A stretch of 64,000 nucleotides of DNA from NCBI GenBank assembly GCA_965214095.1, contig OZ243938.1, forward strand, positions 1,472,001 through 1,536,000, in the 5' to 3' direction. Numbering within the stretch: position 1 is the first letter of the stretch; each line of letters opens with the position of its first letter. Position numbers and translations under genes: made by a program. This stretch comes from Candidatus Poribacteria bacterium (GTDB taxonomy: Bacteria; Poribacteria; WGA-4E; WGA-3G). Below the pieces are notes generated by a model that saw only the letters and a list, made by a program, of their open reading frames with translations, was not told the DNA's origin and did no database searches. Shown here one piece after another: positions 460 through 63,493 of the stretch.

Positions 460-1815
460 ATGCAACCCAATTTTATCATTTTCCTAACCGACGACCAAGG
501 TTACGGTGACCTTTCCTGTATGGGTGCCACAGATTTCAAAACGCCACATCTGGATAGAATGGCAGCTGAAGGCATCCAATTCTCAGATTGGTACTCCAAC
601 TCACCGGTATGCTCACCTTCACGGGCTGCGTTATTAACTGGACGGTATCCGTGCCATGCGGGTGTGCGATCAATTTTAGCCGGACATCGCACCGCTACAG
701 GATTGCCACCTTCCGTGCCAACGATTGCAACCGCACTGAAAGAACTCGGTTATTACTCCGCAATGTCAGGGAAATGGCATCTTGGACTCGCAGAGGGGTC
801 ACGACCTGAAGATCACGGATTTGACGATTGGTTCGGTTTTATGGCCGGATGCATTGACTTCTATTCTCATATCTTTTATTGGGCATTAGGACGACCCGAC
901 TTTGACCAAACACATGACCTGTGGGAAAACGGTGAAGAAATATACCGAAACGGTGAATACTTCACGGAGTTGATAACGGAATACGCGATAAAATATATAC
1001 GAAAATCCCTTGACCTCGGTAAACCATTTTTCCTATATGTGCCATACAATGCACCCCACTATCCGATGCATGCACCGCAGGAATATGTCGATAGGTTCCC
1101 AGATCTTCCGTGGGATAGACAGATTATGGCTGCAATGTTAAGTGCCGTTGATGACAGTGTCGGTGCAATTTTTGCTGAATTGGAACGGCAAGGAATCGCT
1201 GAAAATACCTTCTCTTACTTTCAAAGTGACAACGGTCCTTCGCGTGAAACACGAAATTGGTTAGATGGAACGCAAGACCCGTATTACGGCGGCAGTGCAG
1301 GTAAACTCAAAGGACATAAATTCAGTTTATATGAAGGAGGTATCCGTTCACCCGGGATTATGAAATGGCCTAAAGAAATTCCACCTGGAAACGTACTAAG
1401 TCACCCAAATCTATATGGTGCAGCAATGGATGTTTTTCCGACTTTTCTATCGGCAGCTGATGGAGATCTAACCAAATATGAACTGGATGGACTCAATCAA
1501 TTACCAGTGGTATGTGACGGTGGGTTTACACCGCATACTGATATTTTCTGGGAAATGGGGAAACAGACTGCTATGCGTCGGGATAAGTGGAAATTAGTGC
1601 TCAATGGTCAATTGGTGGAAGGTGCACCTCCCGAAGATGATGTACACCTCGCAAACCTTGAGACAGACATGGGAGAAACGACTAATTTGAAAGACGAATA
1701 TCCTGAAATCACTGCTGAGTTAACAGAAGCGGCGCAAACATGGCGACAAGATATTGAAGATTATTGGGAAACACATAAGGAAGAACGGAACGGGACAACT
1801 GGATATGTTAAATAA
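460..1815 (+). CDS. Arylsulfatase A-like sulfatase
   Basis: PNFIIFLTDDQGYGD; formylglycine motif CSPSRAALLTGR; GKWHLG; SDNG; RBS GAGGAGG upstream. Confidence 0.92.
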   Translation: MQPNFIIFLTDDQGYGDLSCMGATDFKTPHLDRMAAEGIQFSDWYSNSPVCSPSRAALLTGRYPCHAGVRSILAGHRTATGLPPSVPTIATALKELGYYSAMSGKWHLGLAEGSRPEDHGFDDWFGFMAGCIDFYSHIFYWALGRPDFDQTHDLWENGEEIYRNGEYFTELITEYAIKYIRKSLDLGKPFFLYVPYNAPHYPMHAPQEYVDRFPDLPWDRQIMAAMLSAVDDSVGAIFAELERQGIAENTFSYFQSDNGPSRETRNWLDGTQDPYYGGSAGKLKGHKFSLYEGGIRSPGIMKWPKEIPPGNVLSHPNLYGAAMDVFPTFLSAADGDLTKYELDGLNQLPVVCDGGFTPHTDIFWEMGKQTAMRRDKWKLVLNGQLVEGAPPEDDVHLANLETDMGETTNLKDEYPEITAELTEAAQTWRQDIEDYWETHKEERNGTTGYVK

Positions 1816-1966
1816 CCTAAGTTGCTACCTACAAGATTTTAGACCTACGGATACCGTATTATTAATAATAGGGCATTATTCTCCAAATTTTGTAGCGTAA
1901 ACTGCCAGTTTGCGCATTCATAGGCACAATCTAACAGATTGTACTACAAGGTGGCAACTTGGGTTA
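1813..1966. repeat. MITE-like element with terminal inverted repeats enclosing two inverted GTAG hairpins
   Basis: TAACCTAAGTTGCTACCT (1813-1830) vs AGGTGGCAACTTGGGTTA (1949-1966); internal GTAGCGTAAACTGCCAGTTTGCGC and, on the minus strand, GTAGTACAATCTGTTAGATTGTGC; TAAATA on both sides (1809-1814, 1965-1970); related left end at ~45739. Confidence 0.7.
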
Positions 1967-2021
1967 AATAGTATTACCGTGAGAGATTTTGATTTCAAAT
2001 TCTGTAACAATGAGATAATTT

Positions 2022-2915
2022 ATGACACCCTTTAAGTTCGCTTTTATCACAGACACACATCTTTATCCAGATGCACCACAAAATTTTGCTGGTGGATTGC
2101 AACAGCAAGAAAAAAGTTACGCATTATACGAAAAATTGATTGAACAACTCAATGCTTTTGATCCCGCATTTGTAGTGCATGGCGGAGATATTGTTTGCGG
2201 AGGACAAAGTTTTGATATGTCGGCAGAGGAATATGTTGTAGCCTTAAATATAGCGCAATCGCTTGGTGAAAAACTAAATATGCCGTGTTATTATATCCCA
2301 GGGAACCATGATCTAAATCCTGAAACCGGCACCAAGGACATGTATATAGAACGATTCGGCATTAACGGCATGGGATCCGTGAGTTTCGTCAAGGAAAATA
2401 TACGATTTATTTTGATGGATGCACAAGAAGTGCATGAAGATATGACCCACGGATATGTCAGTACGAATCAACTTGCATGGGTGGAACGTGAGATGAAAAA
2501 AGCTGCGGATTACGAAGAGGATATAATCTTTTTTACGCACCAGCTGCCTTTTCCAAATGTGGAATTTCAAGGACTTGGTTCAAGAATAGCAAATTCCGCA
2601 GAGATACTTGAAATCGTTGCACCATTTGAAAAACAGATTATAGGTTTCTTTTGTGGACATCTACACCTTAACCGTGTCTTTAGAGAACAAGGCTTATTGT
2701 GCATCGTCTCATCGGGAATTATATGCTATCCAATGATGTGGCGGCAAGTTCATGTTTATCCTGACAGAATCGAGGTAAAGTCCGTTCCTGTTGACCTACC
2801 AGAAGTCCTTGCCGAATCTGAAGCTGTTAATCCAGACAATAATCCGTATCTGTCTGGCCGTCCAAGAGATCAAGAATTTACTATCCAACGGCATACTGAA
2901 GGAGTCAATAGTTAA
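2022..2915 (+). CDS. Calcineurin-like metallophosphoesterase (Icc/CpdA-like)
   Basis: Motifs DTH, GD, PGNHD, THQ, GHLH. Confidence 0.85.
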   Translation: MTPFKFAFITDTHLYPDAPQNFAGGLQQQEKSYALYEKLIEQLNAFDPAFVVHGGDIVCGGQSFDMSAEEYVVALNIAQSLGEKLNMPCYYIPGNHDLNPETGTKDMYIERFGINGMGSVSFVKENIRFILMDAQEVHEDMTHGYVSTNQLAWVEREMKKAADYEEDIIFFTHQLPFPNVEFQGLGSRIANSAEILEIVAPFEKQIIGFFCGHLHLNRVFREQGLLCIVSSGIICYPMMWRQVHVYPDRIEVKSVPVDLPEVLAESEAVNPDNNPYLSGRPRDQEFTIQRHTEGVNS

Positions 2916-2977
2916 TGGGTATACGAGCAAATCTATAGTCGGTTCTTACATTTTGGAAATGAAAGGATCTTAAGATA

Positions 2978-3579: not shown

Positions 3580-4554
3580 ATGATTGAAGTACAAGATCTC
3601 TCAAAAAACTACGGACCTTTTCAAGCACTAACGGATATATCATTCAGTGTTGACAAAGGACAAATTGTAGGATTTCTTGGTCCCAACGGTGCTGGAAAAA
3701 CCACTACAATGCGGATCCTAACCTGCTTTATGCCAGCAAGTCGCGGAAAGGTAACCGTGGCAGGATTTGATGTATTCAAAGAATCGCGCGAGGTGCGAAA
3801 ACGTATTGGATACCTACCCGAAAATATACCGCTTTATACAGAGATGACCGTCACCAAGTATCTCACCTATATGGGAAAAATCCGAAACGTTCCGCGCAAA
3901 CACATGAAAGAACGGTTGGACATTGTGATTGAATCCTGCGGTCTAAGCGAAAGACGTAATCAGATTATTGGACAACTCTCACGCGGTTTCCGGCAACGCG
4001 TCGGATTAGCACAAGCACTCGTTCACGACCCCGAAGTGCTTATACTTGACGAACCCACATCCGGTCTAGACCCACGCCAAATCGTAGAAATACGAGATTT
4101 GATCAAAGAACTGGGGAAAGAACGTACTATTCTTTTCAGCACACACATCCTCCCTGAAGCAAGAATGACCTGTGAACGGCTATTGATTATTAGTAAAGGT
4201 AAAATCACTGGTGACCTTAAAATATCCAATGGAAGTGCTGTTTCAAACCTTACTTCGAATACAGATGAAAGCGAGACACCTCAACAGATGCTCACACTCG
4301 TTGTGTCCGGTGGACAACCTGATATAATAAAGGAAACGCTTGAACGTATTCCAGATATTATTGCCGTAGAACAGACACCGACAAATGTTGAAGAAACACT
4401 GTCCTTCCATATCCAATACACTTACACAAATGATATACGATCAAAAGTCGCGAAAACAATCGTTGATCAGGGATGGAACTTGCTTGAAATGCGTTCTGAT
4501 GAGATGAGTTTAGAGGAATTATTCCTATCCTTAACTGCGGAAATTGTTGAGTAG
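3580..4554 (+). CDS. ABC-2 type transporter ATP-binding protein (GldA-like)
   Basis: Walker A GPNGAGKTT, signature LSRGFRQRV, Walker B LILDEPTSGLDP, H-loop STH. Confidence 0.92.
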   Translation: MIEVQDLSKNYGPFQALTDISFSVDKGQIVGFLGPNGAGKTTTMRILTCFMPASRGKVTVAGFDVFKESREVRKRIGYLPENIPLYTEMTVTKYLTYMGKIRNVPRKHMKERLDIVIESCGLSERRNQIIGQLSRGFRQRVGLAQALVHDPEVLILDEPTSGLDPRQIVEIRDLIKELGKERTILFSTHILPEARMTCERLLIISKGKITGDLKISNGSAVSNLTSNTDESETPQQMLTLVVSGGQPDIIKETLERIPDIIAVEQTPTNVEETLSFHIQYTYTNDIRSKVAKTIVDQGWNLLEMRSDEMSLEELFLSLTAEIVE

Positions 4555-4599: not shown

Positions 4600-4702
4600 T
4601 ATAGTGAATTATAAATATAAGTTGACACTTTCGTCCCACGGTAGGCGAGGTTTCCTAACCTCGCCGATGCAGAGTATTCAAGTAATTTCAAAATCTACTA
4701 TA
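4600..4702. repeat. 103-bp MITE-like element, type M1 (copy 1 of 3)
   Basis: TATAGT...ACTATA ends; central GTAGGCGAGGTT-TCCT-AACCTCGCC hairpin; near-identical to 9317-9419 and 29788-29890. Confidence 0.9.
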
Positions 4703-4781
4703 CCAAAACAATGATGTGTGAAGATTTTGTACAAATACATTAGCATCAATTTAAGGAGAATTACGCGTTATTCCCGTGACG

Positions 4782-4806
4782 GTAGGTTCGGTTTCCTAAC
4801 CGAACC
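4782..4806 (+). repeat. GTAG-type REP-like hairpin
   Basis: GTAGGTTCGGTT-TCCT-AACCGAACC. Confidence 0.85.
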
Positions 4807-4879
4807 AGATCTTCCGCTGCCTCTTATCGTAGTGAGATGTAAGTGCAAAAAACTTGACACAACCCTAAATAATATCAAC

Positions 4880-5837: not shown

Positions 5838-5892
5838 AAACACAACAAAACCCCTAATGACCAGAAAAGTCATTAGGGGTTTTGTTGTGTTT
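5838..5892. terminator. Long perfect hairpin, probable bidirectional terminator
   Basis: 24-bp stem AAACACAACAAAACCCCTAATGAC / GTCATTAGGGGTTTTGTTGTGTTT with a 7-nt loop, between convergent genes. Confidence 0.8.
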
Positions 5893-5907
5893 ATGAGTTT
5901 TCAAAAA

Positions 5908-6726
5908 CTACGCAACGTGCGGGACATTCTCTGGCATATTTTCAAGACGAGATAACCAATAACCCACATCGTAGGATTCATCTCCGATGAGAAAACGCCA
6001 TAACTTAATCCGATTTACAATTTCAAGTCGGACATCGTTACCATACCATCTATGGTTCCGACTAAGAATACCTCGAATTCCACCTGTATCCATGTCATCC
6101 GTGTTCCATAACTTGAGTTGGCGCACAGTCGGATTGAGACGCAACTTGAACATATAACGTGTGTCTTCAGTCAAGTTCGGTTGTGCGCAGTGCCACATTC
6201 CGTGATGCACGACGACAAGTGTGCCTGCGTTACAAACTATCGGATGTTGTCCGAGGAAGTTCTGATAACGTGCAACATCGGTTTCACAGACACGTCTGAA
6301 GTGGCTCCCAGGTAGAATCATTGTGCCACCCATTTCTCGTGGTGTATCGTGGGAGAAATAGAAAAACTGAATGTCAAAATGCATCCGTATGTCAATGATT
6401 GCATCTGCATGCCAAATTTGCCCATGTTCACTTTGTGGACGCACAATATGAACCGCATGATGGTCATACAACGGATTCTCACCAACGAGACTCTCGACAA
6501 TTCCTTGAACTTTGGGTAAACGGAAAACCTTGCCAACAGCGGACTCATCATGCCAGACATTATCTAAGACAGTGCCACCGCCACCGCGAACTGACATACC
6601 TGATGCCATCTCTTCATGAGCGGCTTTGTTTAATTCATCGGGAATAAAATCATCAAAGCGAAGGTAGCCATCGGCTACGAAACTCGCCATCTGTTCTGTG
6701 GTTAGGAGATGCTGTTTATCAACCAT
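5908..6726 (-). CDS. Phytanoyl-CoA dioxygenase (PhyH) family Fe(II)/2OG oxygenase
   Basis: 'QMASFVADGYL', WHAD (HxD), GGTMILPGSH, distal WHC, R in TRYMFK. Confidence 0.85.
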   Translation of the reverse strand: MVDKQHLLTTEQMASFVADGYLRFDDFIPDELNKAAHEEMASGMSVRGGGGTVLDNVWHDESAVGKVFRLPKVQGIVESLVGENPLYDHHAVHIVRPQSEHGQIWHADAIIDIRMHFDIQFFYFSHDTPREMGGTMILPGSHFRRVCETDVARYQNFLGQHPIVCNAGTLVVVHHGMWHCAQPNLTEDTRYMFKLRLNPTVRQLKLWNTDDMDTGGIRGILSRNHRWYGNDVRLEIVNRIKLWRFLIGDESYDVGYWLSRLENMPENVPHVA

Positions 6727-9040: not shown

Positions 9041-9225
9041 ATACCATTTCTAAAAAAGAACATACCATTAAAGAAATAGATGGTTCGTAGTCGCGCAATT
9101 CATTGCGCCTCGGACATTCCAACTATGGTGAAATATGAAAATTATTATACACTTTCCTCCCACGGTAGGCGAGGTTTCCTAACCTCGCTAGTGTTGAGAG
9201 TATAAATAATTCTAAAATCTACCAT
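9041..9225. repeat. Nested repeats: ATACCATTTCTA-shell element interrupted by a TATGGT..ACCATA (M1-variant) element
   Basis: 9041 ATACCATTTCTA..GTAGTCGCGCAATTCATTGCGC, then 9124 TATGGTGAAAT..GTAGGCGAGGTTTCCTAACCTCGC..CTACCATA. Confidence 0.8.
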
Positions 9226-9316
9226 AAAATTGGAATATCATTTATATATCTGGTCTTATGTTGTGGTTACTCAATTATACGTTCAAAAGATGGCATAAGC
9301 AACGGAAAACCTTATT

Positions 9317-9419
9317 TATAGTGAATTATAAATCTAAGTTGACACTTTCGACCCACGGTAGGCGAGGTTTCCTAACCTCGCCGATGCAGAGTGCTCAAGT
9401 AATTTCAAAATCTACTATA
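9317..9419. repeat. 103-bp MITE-like element M1 (copy 2)
   Basis: Near-identical to 4600-4702. Confidence 0.9.
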
Positions 9420-12307: not shown

Positions 12308-12422
12308 ATACCATTTCTAATAAAGGCTATACCAATAAAGAAATAGTTGGTTCGTAGTCGCGCAATGAATTGCGCCTCTTACATTATAAATGAAAAGAGA
12401 AAATCATTTTTAGAAATGGTAT
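12308..12422. repeat. 115-bp MITE-like element, ATACCATTTCTA shell with GCGCAAT hairpin core
   Basis: ATACCATTTCTA...TAGAAATGGTAT; core GTAGTCGCGCAATGAATTGCGC; homologous to 9041, 29894, 44451. Confidence 0.85.
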
Positions 12423-14357: not shown

Positions 14358-15218
14358 ATGCAAGAAATACGTGATTCTAATGATCCAATGCCATTGGCTC
14401 CAGGTGAGAAGTTGATGACGCCTGAACAAAAGTTCTTCTTTGATCTGCGTGGTTGGATTTTATTACCATCAGTCTTGTCGGAAGCGGAAATCGAAGAGAT
14501 GAAAACGGAAGTGTATGCAGGTGCCAGACATAGTTATGAAGGCACACTTCAGAATTTGCTTGATCATCCTGCTGTTGTTGGTATTCTAAACGAACTTGTT
14601 GCTGACGAACGTTTTATTTTTGATGATTGCTACGGCTTTCGTTGTGAGAATTCGTTTACTACGGTCAGGCAACCCGGGTGGAAAACCCCATCTGAAAGAG
14701 GCACTTCTGTGCCGCATGTCGTGAGACCACCACAGCAAGCAAATGCAGTACGGTATCAGGTAGCAGGTGGAAAGATATTCGCAGGACTTACACGTGTGGT
14801 ATGGGAACTTGAAGAAGTTAAAAGAGGTCAGGGAGGTACCACTTTTCTCACTGGTTCACATAAGGCACATTTCAACTACGGTGGACCAGATCCACACCGT
14901 CCGAATATCAGTGAATCCCCTTATGAGGATAAGATAAAGGATATGATGGAAGACTATAGTTGTCCACCTGGGTCAGCACTTGTGTTCACTGAAAGCCTTA
15001 TTCATGCCACCAACAACTGGACAAATCCTGATAATCCGAGATGTGCTGTGTTTAACTGTTACAATTCAATATGGGCGCAATGGTATCGGTTGAATCTAAG
15101 CCATGAAATAATAGAAAGAATGCCGACAAAACGCCAATCCTTATTCCGTGGAACTTGGGCAATAGGCGGTGGTCCCGGTGGAAACCGTCAGTATTCGTTG
15201 GATAATACCACCAAATAA
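14358..15218 (+). CDS. PhyH-family dioxygenase-like protein, paralog 1
   Basis: 'EQKFFFDLRGW', GGTTFLTGSHK, PGSALVFTESLIH; start chosen at MQEIRD. Confidence 0.8.
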   Translation: MQEIRDSNDPMPLAPGEKLMTPEQKFFFDLRGWILLPSVLSEAEIEEMKTEVYAGARHSYEGTLQNLLDHPAVVGILNELVADERFIFDDCYGFRCENSFTTVRQPGWKTPSERGTSVPHVVRPPQQANAVRYQVAGGKIFAGLTRVVWELEEVKRGQGGTTFLTGSHKAHFNYGGPDPHRPNISESPYEDKIKDMMEDYSCPPGSALVFTESLIHATNNWTNPDNPRCAVFNCYNSIWAQWYRLNLSHEIIERMPTKRQSLFRGTWAIGGGPGGNRQYSLDNTTK

Positions 15219-15243: not shown

Positions 15244-16083
15244 ATGTCAAAAGAAACGTTAAATGATGTACCTGTGCCAATGACTGAAGAACAGAAGTTT
15301 TTCTTTGATTTACGCGGTTGGATTTTATTACCGTCAATATTGTCTGACTCAGAAATAGAAGAGATGAAAGCGGAAGTGTATGATGGTGCAAGACAAGGTT
15401 ATCATGGAGCACTGCAGAACTTGCTTGATCATCCTGCAATTGTAGGTGTACTGAATGAAATCCTATCCGAAAATCCTTTTGTACACGATGACAGTTATGG
15501 ATTTCGGTGTGAAGGATCCTTTACGACAGTGCGTGAACCTGGATGGAGTAAATCGTCACGAGGTGACAACGGTTTGCCACACGTTGTGCGACCACCACAA
15601 CAGGCAAATGCAATGCGGTATCAGGTAGCAGGTGGAAAGATATTTGCTGGATTGACACGTGTCGTATGGGAACTTGAGGAAGTGAAGGAAGGACAAGGCG
15701 GTACCTCTTTTCTTAGTGGGTCTCATAAGGCACATTTCAACTACGGTGGCCCCGACCCGTTTCGTCCGAATATCAGTGAATCGCCGTGGGAAGGTAGCAT
15801 GCGTGATATAATGGATGAATATAGTTGTCCACCCGGATCTGTGGTTATCTTCACGGAAAGCCTTGTGCATGCTGCGAATGATTGGAGTAATCCTGACAAT
15901 CCGAGATGCGCGGTTTTCAATTGCTATAACTCTATTTGGGCACAGTGGCATCGGTTGAACTTGAGTCATGAGGTTATTGAGACGATGCCACCAAGACGGC
16001 AATCGTTATTCCGTGGGACGTGGGCGATTGGCGGGGGTCCTGGTGGTAATCGTGTGTATTCGCTGGAGAATAATACGACGTGA
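15244..16083 (+). CDS. PhyH-family dioxygenase-like protein, paralog 2 (tandem duplicate)
   Basis: Highly similar to the upstream gene; RBS AAGGAG before ATG 15244. Confidence 0.8.
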   Translation: MSKETLNDVPVPMTEEQKFFFDLRGWILLPSILSDSEIEEMKAEVYDGARQGYHGALQNLLDHPAIVGVLNEILSENPFVHDDSYGFRCEGSFTTVREPGWSKSSRGDNGLPHVVRPPQQANAMRYQVAGGKIFAGLTRVVWELEEVKEGQGGTSFLSGSHKAHFNYGGPDPFRPNISESPWEGSMRDIMDEYSCPPGSVVIFTESLVHAANDWSNPDNPRCAVFNCYNSIWAQWHRLNLSHEVIETMPPRRQSLFRGTWAIGGGPGGNRVYSLENNTT

Positions 16084-20158: not shown

Positions 20159-20830
20159 CAGGGTTATTTATAGTAAAGTTTAGAATTAAGAAGACATTTC
20201 AATGTGCTTGTTTCAAAATGAGCAGCCCCAGCGGGGCGACAGGTGTATAGAAAAATGTACCCCACAAGCGTCAATTTAGCATCCTTCCAAGTACCGGTAG
20301 GTTCGGTTTCCTAACCGAACCGTATTTGTGCCAAATACCTTTATAGAGGTTCTCGCACAGGTTCCGTGCGGTTAGGAAACCGCACCTACCGGCCTGGGGA
20401 AAACGCCTAATTTACACTAAATTGACGCCTATGGTGTATAGAAAACTGTGCCCCGACCAATGCAAGTCCCAGCGGGGCAGCATGCGCGTGTGGCATGCTG
20501 CATGAGGTGTATCATTGAAGAAATAGATATGATGACTGTGATACTCCTTGTCCAGAGCACTGTTCAAGTCCTCAAAAAACTGTCCAAACTATAGTAAAGT
20601 TAAGAGGCTGGATCGAACTCGTCACTGGATTTATTGATTCTTGTCTGAACCAGGATTTACAGGATTTACAGATCAACGGTATGAATGCGCGTGTGGCATT
20701 CCCCGGGATAAGCGTCTGAAACATCAAAGTGCCATCCAGAGAATAAACGCCAAATTGGGGATAAGAACTTTGCAGAGCCAAACTCATAATCCTGAAAATC
20801 TAAAAATCCTGAAAATCCTGGTTCAGACAA
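20159..20830. repeat. Gene-free cluster of several repeat families (inverted REP pair 20297-20389, CCCCAGCGGGGC hairpins, CTATAGTTTGGACA arm, 190-bp TTGTCTGAACCAGGATTT element 20641-20830)
   Basis: Each motif recurs elsewhere in the window; 20641-20830 has 18-bp perfect terminal inverted repeats. Confidence 0.85.
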
Positions 20831-20857
20831 ATAGGACTAAAAACATCTTAATTTCTC

Positions 20858-20886: not shown

Positions 20887-20914
20887 ATAACCTAACTTAT
20901 ACATTCATATTTAA

Positions 20915-21918
20915 TTGAACTCATAGCGAGTAACATCTAAGCATCGTTGAAAGTTGCTCGAAAATTTATCATTGAATATGCTAAATTACGAAAACCTAAA
21001 CGTGTTTCTTTGAGTTTATCATAACTTAGAACGAGTCTTCGGTAAGTATCTTGCCACCCGAAAGTTCGCTCTACTTTATACCGGTCTTTGTATATATCTT
21101 TTCTAAACCACCGGAACTTGCGAGCGATAGCGATAGGTTCTTTAGTGTTTCGTTTGTTAGGGTAGATCACTGGGATCAGTCCTTGTTCTTTAATAATCTT
21201 ATGATTCACCTTGGAATCAAAACCAGAATCCAGCGTTAGCGCGGAACCATCAAGTGCCATGCCAATCCGATTGCTGAAGGAGATGAGTTCGGTCAATGCC
21301 TCGGGCAAAATCGTTGTATCATGTTGGTTCACTGGTTTGAGGGTTATTGGACCAATGATAAAACCTTTATTGTCGGTGATAGCCACCTCTTTTTCACCTT
21401 TTTGATGTTTATGACCTGAATACCCTATGGTGTCACCCCTTTTTTTACAACAGTGTTTGAACCATCACCATGTAAACAAGAGGTGTCAAGTTGATCACTA
21501 TCATGAAGATGTATGACAGATGCTTCAAAAAGTTTCTCATAAGAACCATCTTTTGACCAACGATTATGCCATTTATAGACGTTAGACCAATGGAGTTCAT
21601 TACGCCGTGTGCGGAGTTGATCCCATTGAATACCGGTATGTAAAACATAGAGGATATAGTTGAATATCTTATAGAAAGACAGTTTCGGTTTGGGACCTTT
21701 TATGCGTTTCTTTAGATGAGGTTTGATATAACGATTAAAATCCTTACGTGAAACCTGCTTCGGAATACCATTGTATCTGAGGGGCTCTTGAACCTTGTCT
21801 GCCATAACAACACCTTTCAATAAGTTATAGATATATGAAGTGAAAGAATAGGACATAAATAAACTCTTGTGTTTCCCTATTATATAGCATTATTATGTTT
21901 TACTCAATATGAGTTCAT
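20915..21918 (-). mobile_element. IS5-family insertion sequence (~1.0 kb)
   Basis: Imperfect IRs TGAACTCATAGCGAGTAA / TTACTCAATATGAGTTCA; flanked by TTAA at 20911-20914 and 21919-21922; encodes a split transposase. Confidence 0.85.
20937..21805 (-). CDS. IS5-family DDE transposase in two ORFs joined by a -1 frameshift
   Basis: OrfA 'ILYVLHTGIQW..W..VYKWHNRWSKDG..LHGDGS'; A7G4 slippery run at 21446-21436; -1 frame reads KKGGDTIGYSGHKHQKGEKEVAITD..LDSGFD..RYKVERTFGW. Confidence 0.88.
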
Positions 21919-21932
21919 TTAAAAGGAATGAG

Positions 21933-44200: not shown

Positions 44201-44367
44201 TCGTTCCCTTGCTGAAAAAGCCAGTTTTTAAGATCTTCTTCAATGATATTGCTATTTTCTTCAATGCTATCTGCCCAGTTGCCGAGGTAATCATATTGCA
44301 AGGTATCTTGGAAGAACTCTATGACCTTTTTTTGTGTATCTTGCTCTGTCTCGCGAATGATGTGCAT
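41245..44367 (-). CDS. hsdR: Type I restriction endonuclease R subunit
   Basis: PD..ELK nuclease motif, Walker A WHTQGSGKS, DECHR, GFTGTP, LLTGFDAP, QAICRVNR. Confidence 0.95.
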   Translation of the reverse strand: MHIIRETEQDTQKKVIEFFQDTLQYDYLGNWADSIEENSNIIEEDLKNWLFQQGNDSERINRAVYQLQQTSKFGGSRTLYDANLEVYDLLRYGVKVQPDVSKQHKTVWLIDWDTPENNDFGIAEEVALSGKHNKRPDLVLYINGIAIGVLELKRSIVSVSEGIRQNLTNQTEDFIEWFFSTVQLVMAGNETEGMRYGVIKTPEKYWLRWKERDADAETEPNPLLRELSHFCNKERILEILRHFIVFDSGIKKICRHNQYFGVKAAQERVQSREGGIIWHTQGSGKSLTMVWLAKWILEKISNARVLIITDRTELDEQIEGVFKGVSEDIKRTQSGEHLVQVLTDASERLTCSLVHKFGSNEETSETDIDGYVAEFKRHLPDDFQAKGDFFVFVDECHRTQSGKLHKAMKALLPDAMLIGFTGTPLLKSDKQRSIETFGKYIDTYKYDEAVHDEVVLDLRYEARDIDQDITSQDRIDQFFDSKTRGLNDVVKAQLKQRWGTMLNVESSMNRLRKIVADVVLDMETRDRLKSGKGNAMLVANTILSACRLYNLFQETELRGKCAVVTSYRPTTDSIRLEETGEGLTENQQKYNTYREMLAAHFDEPADTTMSKVDQFELEVKRRFINEPAQVKLLIVVDKLLTGFDAPPATYLYIDKNMQDHGLFQAICRVNRIDTDDKEFGYIVDYKDLFKSLEEAMTDYTGEAFDNFDAEDVEGLLKDRLEKGKERLEEAREAIKALCEPVDPPKHINDYIRYFCSDESATPEQIKTKEQKRVHLYKLTAALVRAYSNLANEMEQAEYSATEAREIKKEVEDYEYVRQQVKLASGDYIDLKMFEPDMRHLLDTYIQAEDSETVEIFDNIPLVQLIVDRGADAAIERLPEGIRTNKEAMAATIENNLRRVIVDRTDINPRYYEDMSRLLDDLIQQRRQDASNYREYLSKVTRLSNQVTNPPTGDYSPNINTQARRAFFDNLPDDMSVDQRTEMAIAIDEAIYETRSDEWRGNEFKEREVCYAITRTISDEFGYDTIDIENIFNIAKSQDEY

Positions 44368-44450: not shown

Positions 44451-44587
44451 ATACCATTTATAAATAATAACCTATCATTATCAAATCAGGTGTTCGTAGT
44501 CGCGCAATTCATTGCGCCTCGGACATTCTCTATTTTAAGTTAGAATTCATACTCTTATAATGAGATATTCTCTACTAGAAATGGTAT
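44451..44587. repeat. ATACCATT-shell MITE-like element
   Basis: ATACCATTTATA..GTAGTCGCGCAATTCATTGCGC..TAGAAATGGTAT. Confidence 0.8.
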
Positions 44588-47211: not shown

Positions 47212-48433
47212 ATTTGTCTGGACCAGGATTTTCAGGATTAGTAGATTTACAGGATAAGAGTTTGTCACACTGAAGCGGCTATCTAAAGGGTGCGTAAAGT
47301 TTTGTCACACAGTACTTTGTAGACCTGTATATCTATGCTTAATCCATAGATGCCAACTATCAATATTCTTGTCCTGTAAGTATTACTCTTTAGTCCCTAA
47401 TGAAGATTAATTTATTAAACGGGTAATTCTCATTTACCCAAACCCGGTAGGTGCGGTTTCCTAACCGCACTATAGGTGTCAATTTAAGGATATATTCACC
47501 TGTGAAGGATTTTGAAAGTCTATTTTTCTCATACACACCTTTCGCACCGCTGGTGCTTGGTTTCTTGTGGTGAATATTTTCTATACACCTTTCGCACCGC
47601 TGGTGCTGATATGTGATTTATGAAAGCCTCGGAGAGGCAGCATGCGCGTGTGGCATGCTGCATGAGGTGTATCATAAGCACAAACTTTACCCACTATAGT
47701 AAAACGGACAATTAATGAAACATATTGTCCCAATTGCATATTCATATAATGTCCGAGGCGCAATGATGGGGATTAATTTATTCTTTCGGTAATTCATAGA
47801 CTTTTTAGATGCGATTAGGAAAATGTCTTCTGCGTCACTTGAGCCTATGTTATGGACTAAAAGGTGCTGGTATTTGAAGACAGCAGCACCAGCGGTGCAG
47901 AATGTGTATAGAAAATGTATCGGACCTATAAGCAAGCACCAGCGGTGCGAAAGGTGTATCCCCCTAATTCCATATACGGACACCTGTCGCCCCTCTGGGC
48001 TTGTGTGATGGGTAGTATCGCCTTCCTATACACCTTTCGTCCCGCTGGGACTGAGGACACGCATGAAATGAGTTGATCCTCTAAAATGACGGTTTTGGTG
48101 TGGTTAGGCAACCGGACCTAAGGAACTCGGGATTACCCAATTAATAAATTAATCTTCATAATTGCGCGACTACAAACGCGTTATTCTAAATGGAAAGTGT
48201 ATTGTTAATTTCATATTTTACTATAAATTGATGTATAAGGTGAGGTTTTCTAACTTCACCTAAGCAATGTGTAGAATTAATTCAATAATTTACCATAGTA
48301 GATGGACAGGATGGATACATGGTGTTTCCAAGTGCCACTAAAAAAAACAGTTAATCTTTTAGATAGCCACTATGGCGTGCCAAACTCTTATCCTGGAAAT
48401 CTACTAATCCTGCAAATCCTGGTTCAGACAAAT
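47212..48433. mobile_element. 1.2-kb non-coding composite element with ~60-75-bp terminal inverted repeats and nested inner repeats
   Basis: 47214-47270 is the reverse complement of 48375-48431 with 5 mismatches; inner perfect 19-bp IR 47400-47418 / 48141-48159; REP and CACCAGCGGTG hairpins inside. Confidence 0.75.
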
Positions 48434-48495: not shown

Positions 48496-48952
48496 TCAAG
48501 CAGTTTTTCCTGATTTCAGATTCGTAAGTTCGGTCCTCCCTTTGTTTGTCAAACGATACTTCTGCAACCGACTGTTGGGTTTATCAGGTATTGTATATTC
48601 GATTAACTGTTCTGTTAGAAGTTCTCGTACAACTGCGTTAAGTCGTGCAGAAATTGCTTTCTGTCCTAAACTCTTGGACAATTCGGGTTTTTGCATGGGA
48701 CCGTTAGCAAGCAGCACTATCACTCTGGATTGTAGTGACTCTGGCAGTGACTCTGGCAGTGACTCTGGTTTGGCACGCCAAATCGTTATCTTAAATCCAC
48801 TACTGTCGTCGAATTCCGGTTCGGGTAAGTCAGCATCACTGCAACGGTTGATCATGTCTAATGTCCCTGTTCCCATCCGTTCAATGTATTGCGCCAAATA
48901 TAAAGATTCAGCGAGTAACGGATTATTAGGAATTGACGTGTGCGCGACCCTT
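48496..48952 (-). pseudogene. 3' remnant of an ATP-binding RecG-C/HATPase_c_4 + wHTH protein, truncated by a repeat element
   Basis: In-frame 'LRVAHTSIPNNPLLAESLYLAQYIERMGTG..PEPEF..TIPDKPNSRLQKYRLT'; similarity stops at TTAA ~48951 where a REP element begins; (PESL)x3 from a 12-bp tandem repeat. Confidence 0.75.
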
Positions 48953-49082
48953 AAAGGAAAATTATGCGTTATTCCCCGTGACGGTAGGTTCGGTTTCCTA
49001 ACCGAATCGGTGTTTGTTCAGCCTCACAGATGCAGTTAGGAAACCGCATCACTCATAATCCTGAAAATCCTGGTTCAGACAA
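48951..49082. repeat. REP-pair element plus AATCCTGGTTCAGACAA arm
   Basis: Matches 4751-4806 and the M2 interior; right part matches 20782-20830. Confidence 0.75.
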
Positions 49083-49151
49083 ATGGGAGGACAAAACAAT
49101 AACAAAATTTCAACTGCTATGATTGAACTGTTCGCCACACCCGGGCATTCA

Positions 49152-49655
49152 TTATAGATTTTCATCAAGATATTCTTCAATTTTCTCCAATGTTTTCTTT
49201 CCAATTCCTTTGAAACCTTTAAGTTTACCCTCATCAATCGCAGTCCGTAGGGATGCAAGACTATCAATCTCAACTTCCTCGTATAACCGTTTAATCGTCT
49301 TTGCTCCCAACCCAGGAATAGGCACAAGTTCTGTGATTGACTGAGGTATGGTACCCGCAAATTCGTCTATTTTTTTGCAAGTTCCAGTTTCAAGATATTG
49401 TGTGATGATAGTTGCGACTATATCCCCAACCCCACCGATTTCTTCAATTAACCTGTCTTGCTCAACAAGGTCTGCGATAGATTCAGGAAAACGTGAGATG
49501 GAATGTGCTAAACGTGGATATCGCGAAGCATGGTCTTCAGGATAATCTGCCATTATCAGGAAGGTATGTAGCTCCATCAACCTTAATGCTATTTCATCAT
49601 TGACGTGCCATCGGGTACGCCCCTTTTCGTCTGTATATGATCCTTTATTGTCCAT
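49152..49655 (-). CDS. Stand-alone PolX N-terminal HhH protein, paralog of 37544-37999
   Basis: Shared 'LMELHT.LI.ADYPEDHA.RYPRLA..ISR', GVGDIVATIIT, IPGLG.KT, KGIGKKT. Confidence 0.8.
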   Translation of the reverse strand: MDNKGSYTDEKGRTRWHVNDEIALRLMELHTFLIMADYPEDHASRYPRLAHSISRFPESIADLVEQDRLIEEIGGVGDIVATIITQYLETGTCKKIDEFAGTIPQSITELVPIPGLGAKTIKRLYEEVEIDSLASLRTAIDEGKLKGFKGIGKKTLEKIEEYLDENL

Positions 49656-50751
49656 TGGTTTTCCACCTTAATATTTGAATTGTAGTATCCCACAACGCGA
49701 CTGCCAAATACTTACCATCAGGTGAGAAGGCTAATGCTTGGATGCCGGTTGGATAAGTCACCCAAAATACTGGGTCACCACCAGGGATTTTCCATATTCG
49801 GAGATTCCCTTTCTCGTCTCCAGAAGCAATGTATTCAGTAGAATTAGGTTTTTCCCTCGGTGCGAATGCAAGTGCACGTGTCCAATACGCTTCAAACCCA
49901 TATTTATTTAGAAGTTGTGCACCAGTGTGTACATCCCAAACACGAATACCGGATTTTGCATTGAGTTGTGTGTCTGCTGCAAGCATGCTACCCTCCTGTG
50001 AAAAAATCAGATTCCACACCCCTAAAATCTCACCAGTATTGATAACACGAATAGGTTGATCCGGACCCGTTGTATTCCAAATCTCAATAATTGCGGTATG
50101 TCCTTCATCGTCTCGGTAAGTTCCTTCTGCTGCAGCGAAGTATTGATTATCTGAAGAAAACGTAAGTCCATTCCGAACAGGTAAAGTTGTGTTGAGAGTA
50201 TACAGTTTCTGGGGCGTGAAATTGATACGTGTTGTTTTATTAGGAATCTCTTTAGATCTATCAACCCCATTGCGAGGCATTACAATCACCTTTTCCTGAG
50301 GGCGGATATCCCAAAGTTCAATTTCGTTATTCCCTCGCGACAAAACTGCCAGATTACCACGTTCTGTAAGGCTGCAATGTTCGTAAGCACTACTTATTAG
50401 TTTTTCAACATGCCCCTTAATTAAGTCAACAGTAACGACTAAATCATCAGATATTGGGACAAGTAAATAATTCAACGCATTTGAAAACCCAAAGCGACAC
50501 ATCTTAGGGTTAGTGTATACAATTTGCTTTACTTGGGTCTTTATATCCCATGATACAACAGTCCCTCCCATCCCTTCTGCAATCAACTTCGTGTTATCTC
50601 TGTTGAATGCTATCTGTTGTGCTACATCAGGGAGTAATCTGTCAAGTCGTGGGTTCTGTCTTTCACCGAGTTGAAATGCAGACTCTAACGAAACAGCGTG
50701 AGCAGACATGTATAATAGTGTAAGGAGAATGGTCAGTAAGAACTTTTTCAT
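49645..50751 (-). CDS. Secreted WD40-repeat protein
   Basis: Signal peptide; ALAFSPDGKYLA, IASGDEKGNLRIW, IRVWD; stop overlaps the HhH gene start. Confidence 0.8.
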   Translation of the reverse strand: MKKFLLTILLTLLYMSAHAVSLESAFQLGERQNPRLDRLLPDVAQQIAFNRDNTKLIAEGMGGTVVSWDIKTQVKQIVYTNPKMCRFGFSNALNYLLVPISDDLVVTVDLIKGHVEKLISSAYEHCSLTERGNLAVLSRGNNEIELWDIRPQEKVIVMPRNGVDRSKEIPNKTTRINFTPQKLYTLNTTLPVRNGLTFSSDNQYFAAAEGTYRDDEGHTAIIEIWNTTGPDQPIRVINTGEILGVWNLIFSQEGSMLAADTQLNAKSGIRVWDVHTGAQLLNKYGFEAYWTRALAFAPREKPNSTEYIASGDEKGNLRIWKIPGGDPVFWVTYPTGIQALAFSPDGKYLAVALWDTTIQILRWKTNGQ

Positions 50752-50774: not shown

Positions 50775-50912
50775 TATTGTGAAATGTAAAAATACGTGCA
50801 CACTCCCCGGTAGATGCGGTTTCCTAACCGCATCTATAACACTGAACAAACACCGGTTCGGTTAGGAAACCGAACCTACCGTCGTGTGTAAATAATTATG
50901 ATTCTTACTATA
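50775..50912. repeat. M2 element (copy 3, inverted orientation)
   Basis: Reverse-complement match to 23438-23575; 138 bp. Confidence 0.88.
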
Positions 50913-51034
50913 ATTGTGAACTTTTCTGTAGGAGCGATCTCCGAATCGCGATTTAACTCAGAGATAATCGGGAAGCGGAGTTCATTCCTACAGAAAAGAG
51001 TCGTCCAATTATATCGGAATCCTCATTTTTACTG

Positions 51035-52798: not shown

Positions 52799-54075
52799 TT
52801 ATTCCTGTGATAATTCAGTTAAAAACGTCGCGACAGATTTCCGCTTCGCCTTCTTTGCATAATCAAGTGGTGTTAGTCCCGCATCGTCACGGACATTGAC
52901 AGCCGCGCCGTGCTCAATCAACAACACAGCTTGGTTTTTGCCAACCCCTTTCTGCGCAATGAAGTGCAACGGTGTCTGCCCCTTATCATCAGTCACATTC
53001 GGATTAGCACCATTTTCCAATAAACAGGCAACGCCAACGGTCAAACCGCGTTGTGCGACCCAATGTAGCGGTGTCCACATGCCACGTCTATGCTTTTGAT
53101 GTGCGTTGATATCCAGACCTTTTGCTATGAAACCTTTCAGCAATCTATCAAATCGCTTGGGTCCTTGTCCAACCAGCATATACCAATCTCGCAAGTTAAT
53201 CTCATAACCTAAGTCAATGAGCAGATCAACGATTGCTGGTTGTTTATACTTAAGTGCCAGCTCAAGTAACGGCATAGTCGGTCCGACTTGATACGCATAG
53301 ACGTGTCCACCCGGAACTTCATTCTCCTGTTCAGTATTTACCTTAGAGGATTTCTCCGATGGTATAATGTAACCTGTAGGATCTTTTACATTAATCCGTA
53401 ATCTGAGAAGATCGGGATTTCTTTGAAATTCCTCTCTTGCTCGTTCAACGTCACCCATTGCACAATAGAGGACAACATCGGTTTCTGCCCCTTTTTCAAG
53501 CAGATATTTGCATACCTCAGGTCGTCTACTCATTGTCCATTGTGCTGCAGTTCCATTATGGTCCTGATCACGTAAATTTATGTCGGCACCGTGTTTGAGA
53601 AGCAAGTCAGCAATTCGGGGTGTGGCAGAGAAATGTAACGGAGACATGCCATCACTTCCCAGTGTGTGAACTACTTCTGGATTTCCACCAATCAACGTTT
53701 CAAGTGTATCCAGCATGTCCAACCCAGCAGCAGCATGTGCGTCAATCGTTGCTCCACGTTCAATCAGGTGTTCCGCCAATTCCTTGTTGTAACTTAGCAT
53801 TGAACCTGTTACATGCTGAAGTGCTGAAGTACCACCTGCCCACCAAGAACTCTTGACATCAATGTTTGCACCTGCATCCAGCAGCACATCAATAAACGGA
53901 CGATCTCCTCTGCCTGCTGCATGCACAATTGCAGGAGCATCAAAAGAAAACCAAGGTTCATCATGTGGTCTTTGAGGTCACTGTTATTTGCCAACAATGA
54001 CCTGACCTTTTCTGCTTCTCCATTATTCACTGCATCAATAAATGCTGTTCGCTGCAAGTGCCAACCTTGACTCAT
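52799..54075 (-). pseudogene. Ankyrin-repeat protein gene with a single-base frameshift near 53963
   Basis: ORF 54075 (MSQGW..LKDH) joins 'DEPWFSFDAPAIVHAAGRG' on adding one base; ankyrin motifs SPLHFSA, TPLHWVA, TPLHFIA, TPLDYA. Confidence 0.75.
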
Positions 54076-58577: not shown

Positions 58578-58966
58578 CTATAGTTTGGACAGTTTTTTAT
58601 AGACTTGAATAATAGTCTGGACAAGGAGAATCACAGTCATCATACCTATTTCTTAAATGATACACCTGTCGCCCCGCTGGGGCTATAAATCGTTTGTTCA
58701 CGATGTACTATACACATTTCGCCCCGCTGGGGCTGCTCATTTTGATGTTTTCACACTTTTTCATCAAAGTATTATCCTATCCAAAACTCACAATATATTG
58801 CAAATGCCAGCAATATCATACCATTTCTATAAATGTTTATCCCATTAACATTTGTTAAGAATGTCTTGAAGGATGGCACAAACTGGCAGTTTGTGCTACA
58901 AAAATGCGGCGTTTTCTATTAGAAATGGTATCAGTATGTAACCAAGAGAAATTGTCCAAACTATAG
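58578..58966. mobile_element. 389-bp MITE with 14-bp perfect TIRs and a 10-bp target-site duplication
   Basis: CTATAGTTTGGACA / TGTCCAAACTATAG; TATTAAATTA at 58568-58577 and 58967-58976; nested ATACCATTTCTA..TAGAAATGGTAT element at 58818-58931. Confidence 0.85.
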
Positions 58967-61938: not shown

Positions 61939-61957
61939 TGTGCTTAGACAAAATAAA

Positions 61958-63223
61958 CTATTTGGGATTTATTTGCCGGTTAAACTGAGTCAGATAATTC
62001 CCAATCTTATCTTGTATCCCACGTGCTACTGCAGCAGAACCAACATAATGACTGATGAGGATTCCAAAAGCAAACACTTCACCATCGGCTGTCCGAGTGT
62101 AGCCAGCAAGTGCCGAAACACCACTTAATGTTCCTGTTTTCGCACGCAGAACTTTCTCTGCATACATGCCTTGCATCCTATTTCTCAATGTGCCATCAAC
62201 ACCAGCAATCGGTAGTGATGCTGTAAATTCTGGCATCAGCTCAAAATTGAGATACATATAGACGAGTAGATTAGTAAGCAGTTCCACGTTGAGAAGGTTA
62301 TACCGTGAAAGTCCTGAGCCGTCAACAAACCGATGTGCAGGTGGTTCAGCCATAATTTCACCTAAAAAATCAGTAATAGAATCTCTTCCCTTTCGCCACG
62401 TCCCGGGTTCTCCTTTAACCTCCGCTCCGATGGTTTTGAATAAGAACTCGGCAATCCAATTATCACTCGGTTTATTCATCAATTTGATAATCTCTGCCAG
62501 TGGAGGGGATAAATGGGTCGCAACAATCTGGGCATCAGATGGCACAGTACCAGCAATCACATCACCAGATACTATCATACCCCTTTGAATGAGAGTTGTT
62601 TTCAGAAGATTACCGCAGGCGATTGCTCTACTGCCAGTTTTTACATCAGGTTCAAGATCGCGTATACTTAACGCACTCACATGAAAAGGTTTGTCATCCC
62701 ACATCCAACCCGGACCTTCGCGGACAGTATCAAAGTAAGTTTCATCAACGACGATGTCTCCGATAATTGATTTTATACCTGCTTTTGCTAAAACATCAGA
62801 TAATCGTAGAATAAAACCAGATTCAAGAACCGGATCACCTTTACCTTTGAGATATAGGTTTCCAATTACATGCGGGTCATCGGTTTTCACCGCATGTAAT
62901 GTTGTTTCAAATTGAAAGTTCGATCCTAATTTCGCTAAAGCAGTTGCTGCTGTAAAGAGTTTCGTTGTAGAAGCAGGATGGTGTAGTTTATGTGCATTAT
63001 TGACATATATCATCTCACCAGTCTCTACTGAAACCACTTTGATACCTACGCTTGCTGTCCTAAACAAGGAATCCTGTAATACTTCATCAATATCTGAACG
63101 TAATTGTTCAAGTGGATTGACACCTTCTGGCGGCGGATGTTTTTCCACAGGTTTCGTAGAAAATATTCCACAACCTGAAATTAGGATTACCCAGCAGATA
63201 AGAATTACGTTATATATTCTCAT
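61958..63223 (-). CDS. dacB: D-Ala-D-Ala carboxypeptidase/endopeptidase (PBP4, peptidase S13), lipoprotein
   Basis: Lipobox ISGC; PASTTK (SxxK), SDN (SxN), DGSGLSR, KTG. Confidence 0.92.
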   Translation of the reverse strand: MRIYNVILICWVILISGCGIFSTKPVEKHPPPEGVNPLEQLRSDIDEVLQDSLFRTASVGIKVVSVETGEMIYVNNAHKLHHPASTTKLFTAATALAKLGSNFQFETTLHAVKTDDPHVIGNLYLKGKGDPVLESGFILRLSDVLAKAGIKSIIGDIVVDETYFDTVREGPGWMWDDKPFHVSALSIRDLEPDVKTGSRAIACGNLLKTTLIQRGMIVSGDVIAGTVPSDAQIVATHLSPPLAEIIKLMNKPSDNWIAEFLFKTIGAEVKGEPGTWRKGRDSITDFLGEIMAEPPAHRFVDGSGLSRYNLLNVELLTNLLVYMYLNFELMPEFTASLPIAGVDGTLRNRMQGMYAEKVLRAKTGTLSGVSALAGYTRTADGEVFAFGILISHYVGSAAVARGIQDKIGNYLTQFNRQINPK

Positions 63224-63273
63224 AACATGTTAATATTATCACACATTTTGAGAATATGAAAGGAAAACACCCA

Positions 63274-63493
63274 AGGGTTATTTAGTTTTCGGTTTTTCTT
63301 GTCCTTTTTCACAAATGCTAAATGCCTCAAGTTGGTAGGTGCGGTTTCCTAACCGCACCGAATTTGTGATAAAACCTTTCATAGTCAGTTTTATTGTGGG
63401 TTCCGGTGCGGTTAGGAAACCGCACCTACCGGCTTGGGTATTAACTTTTAGTAAATCTCTATTTTGGAAAATACTTAGAACTAAATAACCCTG
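63274..63493. repeat. MITE-like element, AGGGTTATTTAG shell enclosing an inverted REP pair
   Basis: AGGGTTATTTAGTT / AACTAAATAACCCT; GTAGGTGCGGTTTCCTAACCGCACC at 63335 and its inverse at 63405-63429; right half matches 30151-30238. Confidence 0.85.

Follow-up and report, generated by a model that had tools for sequence, protein, structure and literature searches.

How do repeats of two different classes come to be built into one another? Repetitive extragenic palindromes (REPs), together with REP doublets forming hairpins (REPINs), and miniature inverted-repeat transposable elements (MITEs) are usually treated as separate classes of bacterial repeat that are served by separate enzymes. In the 64,000-nt stretch of a Candidatus Poribacteria chromosome analyzed here (GCA_965214095.1, contig OZ243938.1, positions 1,472,001-1,536,000; hereafter the window), a REP-type hairpin tagged with GTAG instead lies at the center of nearly every MITE subfamily. 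The original prediction, drawn from the window's sequence alone, had described GTAG hairpin cores carried interchangeably inside several kinds of terminal inverted repeat (TIR) shell, and the termini and cores that it named are present at 12/12 sites. Our interpretation, which we consider probable if well short of certain, is that these elements are MITEs derived from insertion sequences (ISs) with GTAG hairpins at their centers, that shell and core move as units, that the pairings are old, and that the hairpins entered the shells by central insertion. The MITE subfamilies with a central hairpin belong to at least two transposase families, and the composites are demonstrably mobile as units.

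A genome scan with the KDPG aldolase of the window (29114-29827) as query returned 80 related loci (1.53 Mb in total, designated by L numbers), the best match sharing 93% amino-acid identity; 76/80 are titled as Poribacteria (metagenome-assembled genomes) and 4/80 as 'uncultured bacterium'. The window from ~18 to 38 kb is collinear, at 70-94% nucleotide identity, with L001, L002, L004, L009, and further loci, so filled sites can be compared directly with empty sites. Coding positions were taken from a map of open reading frames (ORFs) of at least 100 aa, which cover ~81% of the window.

The shells with TATAGT termini are MITEs that stem from an insertion sequence of the IS630 family, because their arms match both ends of such an IS and they are flanked by TA duplications, as is characteristic of IS630-family elements, which duplicate TA. 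The six TATAGT sites fall into two subfamilies: subfamily A is 103 bp long with one hairpin (4600, 9317, 29788, plus a diverged copy at 9124) and subfamily B is 138 bp long and carries a pair of inverted hairpins (23438, the reversed copy at 50775, and 35739, in which 39 bp are duplicated internally). Arms of the TATAGT type recur in many Poribacteria species. The IS itself lies in L008 (17903-18814), where a TA-flanked element of 912 bp encodes an HTH_Tnp_IS630 domain (E = 8.9e-30) and, past an A8 run and in another frame, a DDE_3 domain (E = 2.2e-31); NCBIfam places it among the IS630 family transposases (111.5 bits vs a cutoff of 100). This IS is one of 17 elements whose 34 arms align over ~33 nt without internal gaps (both arms of the copy at 50776 being offset by one base), and every MITE pairs an arm of left type with an arm of right type, mirroring the IS ends. 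A profile made from the MITE arms alone gives full-length matches to both tips of the L008 IS (E = 0.003-0.004 in 1.6 Mb), and at E <= 0.05 the arm profile recovers 53 arms from the window plus the related loci (14 from the window itself), with 0 in shuffled sequence. Over 33 nt, the arms of subfamily A share 73-79% identity with the IS ends and those of subfamily B 58-73% (the 23438 copy 64%/73%, the 35739 copy 58%/64%), and the right arm of subfamily A is still similar to the region of the transposase stop codon. The TATAGT elements are 103-177 bp long, non-coding, present in multiple copies, and polymorphic for presence and absence.

Shell and core are a single inserted unit, accompanied by duplication of TA, because syntenic relatives retain the empty sites for which the original prediction had proposed to look. 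At L025 7882, comparison with L023 reveals an empty site into which shell and core were inserted together with TA duplicated. Empty sites with a single TA are likewise found opposite L017 14117 (in L018 and L015), L049 9758 (in L034 and L029), and L049 3304 (in L066, L029, and L073, the dinucleotide being TG in L073). Within the window, the 23438 element is missing from the orthologous site of L001, L002, and L004, and removal of the element and one TA leaves a gapless alignment to L001. The 35739 element is present at the orthologous site of L001, and that position is empty in L004 and L009.

The same comparisons revealed sites at which different relatives carry different insertions. The 35738 site of L002 (~3929-4047) holds an unrelated 118-bp element with another GTAG hairpin. 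The spacer between the aldolase and CNNM genes (window 29828-30395) is an insertion hot spot: measured between blast anchors, it spans 148-464 nt in the 64 loci with both flanks found, 148-262 nt in 55/64 of them and 202 nt in L002, and the window's spacer, measured from gene to gene, is 568 nt. Each of the expanded spacers (L001, L003, L004, L012, L021, and L025) contains a different palindromic element. Repeat elements of this kind account for most of the size variation of intergenic spacers between closely related Poribacteria genomes, and they will break or confuse metagenome assemblies.

The shell with ATACCATTTCTA (ATACCAT-type) termini is a second MITE type, with 3-bp TNA duplications. 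Its termini are perfect inverted repeats of 11-12 nt, the 3-nt flanks are identical in 6/7 inspected copies (TTA three times, TAA twice, TCA once), and one empty site was found, in L025, for the element at L024 3162. A shell sequence, TACCATTTCTA, allowing at most one mismatch, is counted 8 times in the window, compared with a mean of 1.69 and a maximum of 5 in shuffles. The proposal that the TIR shells are MITEs of DDE transposases thus holds for the TATAGT elements, with their IS630 ends and TA duplications, and for the ATACCAT elements as MITEs with TNA duplications; it fails for the GCGTCAATTTA...TAAATTGACGC element at 20268. In L021, L001, and L019, this module (GCRTCAATTTA) lies between inverted REPs in the arrangement REP-ATAG-module-CTAT-REP, so it is the spacer of a REP doublet and no MITE. 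The window's copy in turn encloses another hairpin doublet. The element at 63274 is covered by none of the syntenic relatives.

The cores behave as REPs. Counting both strands of the window, the main core, GGTAG-N4-GGTTTCCTAACC, is matched exactly 21 times (mean 0.00 in 100 dinucleotide-preserving shuffles), and all 21 lie outside ORFs of at least 100 aa. More generally, the window contains 33 occurrences of GTAG followed by a perfect hairpin with a stem of at least 6 bp (20 shuffles gave 2-7), and these belong to no fewer than five sequence types; in these genomes there is roughly one hairpin per 2-7 kb. The main hairpin comprises a 9-bp stem and a TCCT tetraloop after GTA(G), the last G of GTAG being the first paired base, and it is thus a short palindrome of the 20-40 bp class that forms a stem-loop with GTAG at one end; with 21 copies in 64 kb, all intergenic, it also has the high copy number and extragenic location of REPs. 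This small hairpin is under constraint, because pairing is in excess and changes in the stem are compensatory: among 36 copies from the window and related loci, picked by 5' arm and loop only, 96.2% of stem cells are paired vs 87.1% in shuffles (0/500 shuffles being as high) and 4/9 stem pairs show compensatory changes, which bears out the reading of the cores as GTAG-tagged REP-type hairpins. When whole elements are folded as single-stranded DNA, z-scores range from -3.5 to -7.9. The exact core is scarce in the relatives (10 copies in 8/80 loci, vs 11 within the matching 20 kb of the window), so the TCCT-loop family has undergone expansion in the lineage of the window.

At several sites in the relatives (L001 ~855, ~2600, and ~18100; L023 10743; L025 8787), a small palindrome, AATGCAGAATACC...GTATTCTGC, stands directly after GGTTTCCTAACC, in place of the 3' arm of the TCCT-loop hairpin. 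This placement suggests an element that may target the TCCT-loop REP.

Hairpins are found specifically inside the shells and are not merely crowded around them, because inward and outward directions differ sharply at the arms. Of 76 IS630-type arms, 37 have a GTAG hairpin within 110 nt on the inward side, vs 6 on the outward side (Fisher p = 2e-8), and the contrast persists for arms that were not used in the profile (18/45 vs 2/45) and at ATACCAT termini (14/46 vs 3/46).

Which hairpin occupies which shell is neither fixed nor free. In the window, the TCCT-loop core fills three shells, as had been proposed: the TATAGT elements (4600, 9124, 9317, 23438, 29788, 35739, and 50775), the element at 20268 with GCGTCAATTTA termini, and the one at 63274 with AGGGTTATTTAG termini. 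Within the ATACCAT shell lies either a GCGCAAT core (9041, 12308, 29894, and 44451) or the GCACAAACTG core (58818), also as described, and a close variant of the latter is found in the 1813 element. Across species, IS630-type arms surround one or two TCCT-loop hairpins, doublets of the GTAGGAGCGA type (L014, L017 twice, L023, L019, and L032), and, judged by eye inward of solo arms, GCACAAACT-type, GGGGCGAGG-type, and other hairpins; ATACCAT termini enclose GCGCAAT, GCACAAACT, GTAGGTCGGG, and GGTT-loop-AACC core types; and 1813-type termini enclose the GCACAAACT type in the window and L014 and the GGTT-loop-AACC type in L022. In an automatic table of 34 non-coding GGTT-loop-AACC hairpins, IS630-type arms are the neighbors of 19, the GCRTCAATTTA module of 2, and ATACCAT termini of 1; another 2 belong to the 63274-type element, and the remaining 10 have none of these nearby.

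The word 'interchangeable' is nevertheless too strong. A shell superfamily does have several cores, and a core does recur in several shells across Poribacteria; however, shell and core insert as a unit, and concatenated arms share the core type of their nearest neighbor in 20/23 elements (the exceptions being L034, L017 3309, and L032; the comparison leaves out the IS and a copy with coordinates shifted by one base). Because arm subfamilies track core type in this way, each shell-core pairing looks like an old single event, probably followed by amplification and inheritance, and not like ongoing shuffling. Subfamily A is common to the window, L042, L038, L034, L044, and L025, which are distant species, and the ATACCAT shell with the GCACAAACTG core is common to the window, L017, L015, L024, and L030. 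A flip in the orientation of the GCACAAACTG core within the ATACCAT shell was considered as a sign of independent insertions and rejected, since flipping the whole elements brings them into alignment as a single subfamily. The earlier interpretation is partly supported: REP-type hairpins do reside in DDE-type MITEs, but as old subfamilies and not as freely exchanged modules. Secondary mosaics also occur, namely a nested MITE at 9041-9258, a four-element chain at 29788-30238, and two chimeras with junctions at or near hairpins (48945-49088 and 30042-30238).

We hypothesize that this chromosome segment was colonized by non-autonomous relics of DDE transposons, each with one or two GTAG REP-type hairpins at its center. 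The outer ~33 nt on either side are the left and right IS ends (of the IS630 family in the case of the TATAGT shells) on which a transposase would act, and shell and core are cut and pasted together into TA (IS630 type) or TNA (ATACCATTTCTA type) with duplication of the target. Each subfamily probably had one origin of its shell-core pairing, which was later amplified, inherited, and diverged to give the present matrix of shells and hairpin types; later nesting, tandem duplication, and recombination at shared hairpins probably produced the chimeras at 29788-30238 and 48945-49088. As the entry step, we prefer insertion of REP or REP-doublet units at the centers of palindromic elements, where extruded DNA would be single-stranded, and a single-strand-specific, RAYT-like HUH enzyme (RAYT, REP-associated tyrosine transposase), none being seen here, is a candidate mover of the hairpin units. 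Such centre-targeted nesting is preferred because an inner doublet recurs with sharp ends in different surroundings, because a module lies between inverted REPs in the relatives, and because hairpin midpoints are near-central. Specifically, doublets with the common ends CCCAGRCC...GGYCTGGG occur in four different flanks (20296, 63334, 30080, and L025 4749), and with homology ending so sharply the doublet appears to behave as an independently repeated unit; hairpin and element midpoints are ~1-5 nt apart at 4600, 9317, 12308, 20268, 23438, and 63274. At two bare REP or doublet sites, L022 15300 and L021 9860, divergence or rearrangement of the flanks obscures the insertion ends.

Several observations weigh against this account. 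No empty shell, with arms joined directly, was found among 24 paired elements, and consequently no case was observed of a core entering a shell that already existed (one candidate empty shell, L041 10696-10772, was rejected as a deletion derivative in which the 3' half of a hairpin survives). The same arms also occur without a GTAG hairpin in three MITEs (L029 10735-10872, L049 3304-3473, and L049 9758-9966) with interiors of CCCCCT...AGGGGG hairpin modules, the two L049 copies differing by one extra 39-nt module, and these elements are nonetheless mobile, both L049 copies having clean TA empty sites. The hairpin is off-center by ~10-12 nt at 44451 and 58818 and by ~29 nt at 1814. The window holds no autonomous IS630 copy with matching ends, the link being made through a single IS of another species (L008); a partner IS with ATACCATTTCTA (ATACCAT) termini turned up in neither the window nor the 80 loci, and none was found for the 1813 or 63274 shells in the window. 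Element counts mix paralogues and orthologues, and the independent pairings, estimated at about a dozen, are far below the copy number. Finally, a Pfam scan of 50 window ORFs detected no RAYT, as the original prediction had noted for the window, a crude six-frame scan for the HUH...Y motif in the window and the 80 loci gave only 1 spurious match, and no ORF longer than 82 aa is flanked by inverted hairpins of the same type. These RAYT searches are weak negatives, because RAYTs are typically single-copy, according to the accessible text of one report (PMC5581495).

In the main rival account, the pairing would have arisen at the birth of each subfamily, when the interior of an IS was lost and the repair of the excision gap took up copies of abundant hairpin DNA as filler, with no separate inserting enzyme; the absence of empty shells would then be expected. 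Filler capture is familiar from eukaryotic transposons and may also occur in bacteria. The constancy of arm-core junctions within subfamilies and their difference between subfamilies, the agreement of arm subfamily with core type in 20/23 nearest-neighbor comparisons, and the remnant of the transposase stop-codon region in subfamily A, as an internal deletion would leave, all speak for such capture. What it leaves unexplained is why nearly every subfamily should have taken a GTAG hairpin as filler although these hairpins are so sparse in the genomes, and why modules that are not IS-derived are nested center within center; we regard it as unlikely. Continual recombination of shells and cores as free modules, by DDE and HUH enzymes or at shared hairpins, is the strong form of the original prediction. 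It would fit the two window chimeras (48945-49088 and 30042-30238), in which one family's left flank is joined at or near a hairpin to another family's spacer or right arm, and the presence of one hairpin type in IS630-type, ATACCAT-type, 63274-type, and module contexts. However, it sits poorly with the predominant co-segregation of arm subfamilies and core type (20/23), with identical shell-core subfamilies in distant species, and with the joint movement of shell and core at every empty site, and we consider it quite improbable.

The possibility that whole elements are REPINs moved by a RAYT, the 'shells' being only conserved REPIN flanks, is less probable again. Subfamily B and the 20296-type units are indeed REP doublets that fold into long hairpins, and conserved flanks are described for REPINs in the accessible portions of two reports (PMC3116915, PMC3337134). 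Against this stand the TA duplications in five comparisons, the match of the arms to two different ends of an IS630-family IS with left/right asymmetry kept, the similar insertion of L049 elements that have the same arms without a GTAG hairpin, and the two hairpins of one B element, which differ in stem and are each self-complementary, not complementary to the partner. Mere coincidence, in which MITEs and REPs pile up in permissive spacers and overlap by chance, could draw on the hot-spot spacers that hold different elements in each species (the aldolase/CNNM spacer and the 35738 site), but it is already contradicted by the inward excess of hairpins (37/76 vs 6/76, and 18/45 vs 2/45 for arms outside the profile) and by the joint insertion of hairpin and arms at empty sites, and it deserves next to no credence.

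Beyond the preferred account of central insertion, REP-type hairpins and DDE MITEs might be functionally coupled, either because a single-strand-specific, HUH-type enzyme targets the apex of extruded palindromes of any kind, so that hairpin units would systematically invade the centers of MITEs and of one another, or because the MITE needs a central GTAG hairpin for mobilization or tolerance. We put this forward only tentatively, as something that may well turn out otherwise. If true, two transposition chemistries would jointly build and spread composites throughout the phylum, and the TATAGGA palindromes of Anabaena may share the arrangement. A mechanistic coupling would also provide a testable handle on REP target choice, which the REPIN literature, in its accessible parts, leaves open, and would explain an association left unexplained in cyanobacteria.

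The closest precedent is indeed found in Anabaena variabilis, in which many GTAG-15 dimers lie inside long palindromes of the form TATAGGA...TCCTATA; according to the single paragraph devoted to them in the accessible text, these palindromes were never found without REPs, and the association was left unexplained (PMC3733652). In both cases GTAG hairpins are central in a TATAG...CTATA shell and no empty shells are seen. Unlike the Anabaena elements, for which the text available to us gives no palindrome origin, target duplication, or empty sites (PMC3733652), those described here have IS630 ends and TA duplications; several hairpin types occur per shell superfamily, a second superfamily behaves alike, and Poribacteria are not covered in that text. 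What is new here for REP-in-MITE composites is the IS family, the target duplications, and the empty sites.

Comparison with other known systems places the elements between classes. Like REPIN/RAYT systems, as far as these are set out in the accessible text of two reports (PMC3116915, PMC3337134), they include inverted REP doublets with a spacer that form a long hairpin, have sharp ends, and are extragenic and abundant; unlike REPINs, most doublets lie inside transposon-derived arms and move with those arms and a target duplication, a feature that the same text does not describe for REPINs, and no RAYT was seen. Like IS630/Tc1-mariner MITEs, they have TIRs that match an IS630 IS, duplicate TA, are 100-210 bp long and non-coding, and show presence/absence polymorphism; unlike the usual IS630 MITEs, their interior is a GTAG REP-type hairpin or doublet in nearly every subfamily and not a random IS remnant. 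Very small hairpin repeats inserted in other repeated elements were reportedly described by Elhai and colleagues in 2008 for Nostoc, a different organism with different sequences. To our knowledge, enterobacterial BIMEs (bacterial interspersed mosaic elements) do not draw their motifs from transposon ends, and no BIMEs are known that insert with target duplications. The combination of REPs with other conserved motifs into mosaics, as outlined for BIMEs in the accessible text of the reports (PMC2817692, PMC3184786), is a resemblance in principle only. Our literature search, which reached some sources only in part, returned no description of REPs or MITEs in Poribacteria, and a search for the core motif gave only unrelated primer matches; the REPs and MITEs of Poribacteria appear undescribed so far, and the present elements extend GTAG-tagged REPs to an uncultivated phylum of sponge symbionts.

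The elements of the window are compiled in table 1. Copies beyond those of the original prediction are 4782, 9124, 9041, 29894, 29972, 30042-30238, 47446, and 48945-49088.

Table 1. Repeat elements of the window and their hairpins, with positions in the window and fold z-scores (z) for single-stranded DNA.
Feature	Position	Strand	Details
TA-flanked element with ACCTAAGTTGC...GCAACTTGGGT termini	1814-1965	.	z = -5.8; long hairpin
Two inverted GCACAAACTG-type GTAG hairpins in the 1814 element	~1892-1915, 1926-1947	+, -	
Subfamily A MITE, 103 bp	4600-4702	+	One TCCT-loop hairpin near center, 4641-4665; z = -3.45
GCATCAATTTAAGG... module followed by TCCT-loop GTAG hairpin	4743-4817	+	Hairpin 4782-4806; no IS630-type arms
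ATACCATTTCTA-type MITE	9041-9258	+	GCGCAAT hairpin 9087-9108; right arm degenerate (by eye)
IS630-type MITE, 103 bp, nested at TA in the 9041 element	9124-9226		Hairpin 9165-9188; nesting read by eye
Subfamily A MITE	9317-9419	+	Hairpin 9358-9382
ATACCATTTCTA-type MITE, 115 bp	12308-12422	+	GCGCAAT hairpin near center, 12354-12375; TTA flanks; z = -5.96
GCGTCAATTTA...TAAATTGACGC module	20268-20428	.	Encloses inverted TCCT-loop doublet 20296-20390 (doublet z = -7.85)
Subfamily B MITE, 138 bp	23438-23575	+	TCCT-loop hairpins 23471-23495 (+), 23516-23540 (-); z = -5.2
Chain of elements	29788-30238	+	Starts with subfamily A MITE 29788-29890
Chain, second element: left part of ATACCAT-type MITE	29894-29971		
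Chain, third element: IS630-type left arm and hairpin	29972-30037		
Chain, end: GCATCAATTTA module, doublet, right arm of 63274-type element	to 30238		Doublet 30080-30175
Subfamily B MITE	35739-35915	+	39-bp internal tandem duplication giving a third hairpin
ATACCAT-type MITE, 137 bp	44451-44587	+	GCGCAAT GTAG hairpin 44496-44517
Repeat-dense spacer	47400-48297	.	TCCT-loop hairpin with GTCAATTTA module 47446-47482
Spacer: 531-bp composite between IS630-type arms	47695-48225		
Spacer: IS630-type arm adjoining hairpin without GTAG	~48230-48297		
Chimera	48945-49088	+	Left flank of 4743 type; middle with hairpin, spacer, and second (degenerate) hairpin of subfamily B; right flank AATCCTG repeat
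Subfamily B MITE, reversed	50775-50912	-	Hairpins 50810-50834 (+), 50855-50879 (-)
Doublet of GTAGGAGCGA-type hairpins	50920-51010	.	Type fills IS630-type shells in other Poribacteria
ATACCATTTCTA-type MITE, 114 bp	58818-58931	+	GCACAAACTG-type hairpin 58876-58899 (-); TCA flanks; z = -4.59
Element of 219 bp with AGGGTTATTTAG...CTAAATAACCCT termini	63274-63492	.	Central TCCT-loop doublet 63334-63430

An Rfam scan of the window gave nothing at gathering thresholds, and the plasmid collection searched with the 23437-23576 element gave no match even at E = 10. Other repeats share the spacers of the window with these elements. An IS5-family IS at 20913-21921, with two ORFs (DUF4096 and DDE_Tnp_1; the NCBIfam IS5 family match is below cutoff), is absent at the orthologous site of L001; it was rejected as a partner of the shells, its termini being of the GAACTCATA..GAGTAA type and its flanks TAA/TTAA, with no shell match. 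The hairpin repeat TATACACCTTTCGCCCCGCTGGGGC, usually spaced at 50 nt, occurs at 58655-58736, 47528-47609, 47882-47965, 20221-20254, and 20440-20480, and the 20268 element lies between two of its copies; its perfect tandem arrays in L001, with a 50-nt unit, contain 6.1 and 2.8 copies (5878-6181 and 6587-6726, 100% identity). The 50-nt periodicity was considered as a CRISPR array and rejected, as the units, including the 'spacers', are identical, which makes the repeat a minisatellite. An AATCCTG-like heptamer repeat ending in TGGTTCAGACAAA has four copies in the window (20767-20831, 40454-40518, 48368-48432, and 49019-49083), and a longer run in L001 adjoins an ATACCAT-type half element.

Among the genes of the window, adjacent genes for PhyH-like dioxygenases (14415-15009 and 15280-15874) are a tandem duplication with 74-80% DNA identity. 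WD40 and ankyrin repeat proteins and the R subunit of a type I restriction system are encoded at 38842-40122, 49645-50751, 52799-53926, and 41245-44367; eukaryote-like repeat proteins such as those with WD40 and ankyrin repeats are compatible with a sponge symbiont.

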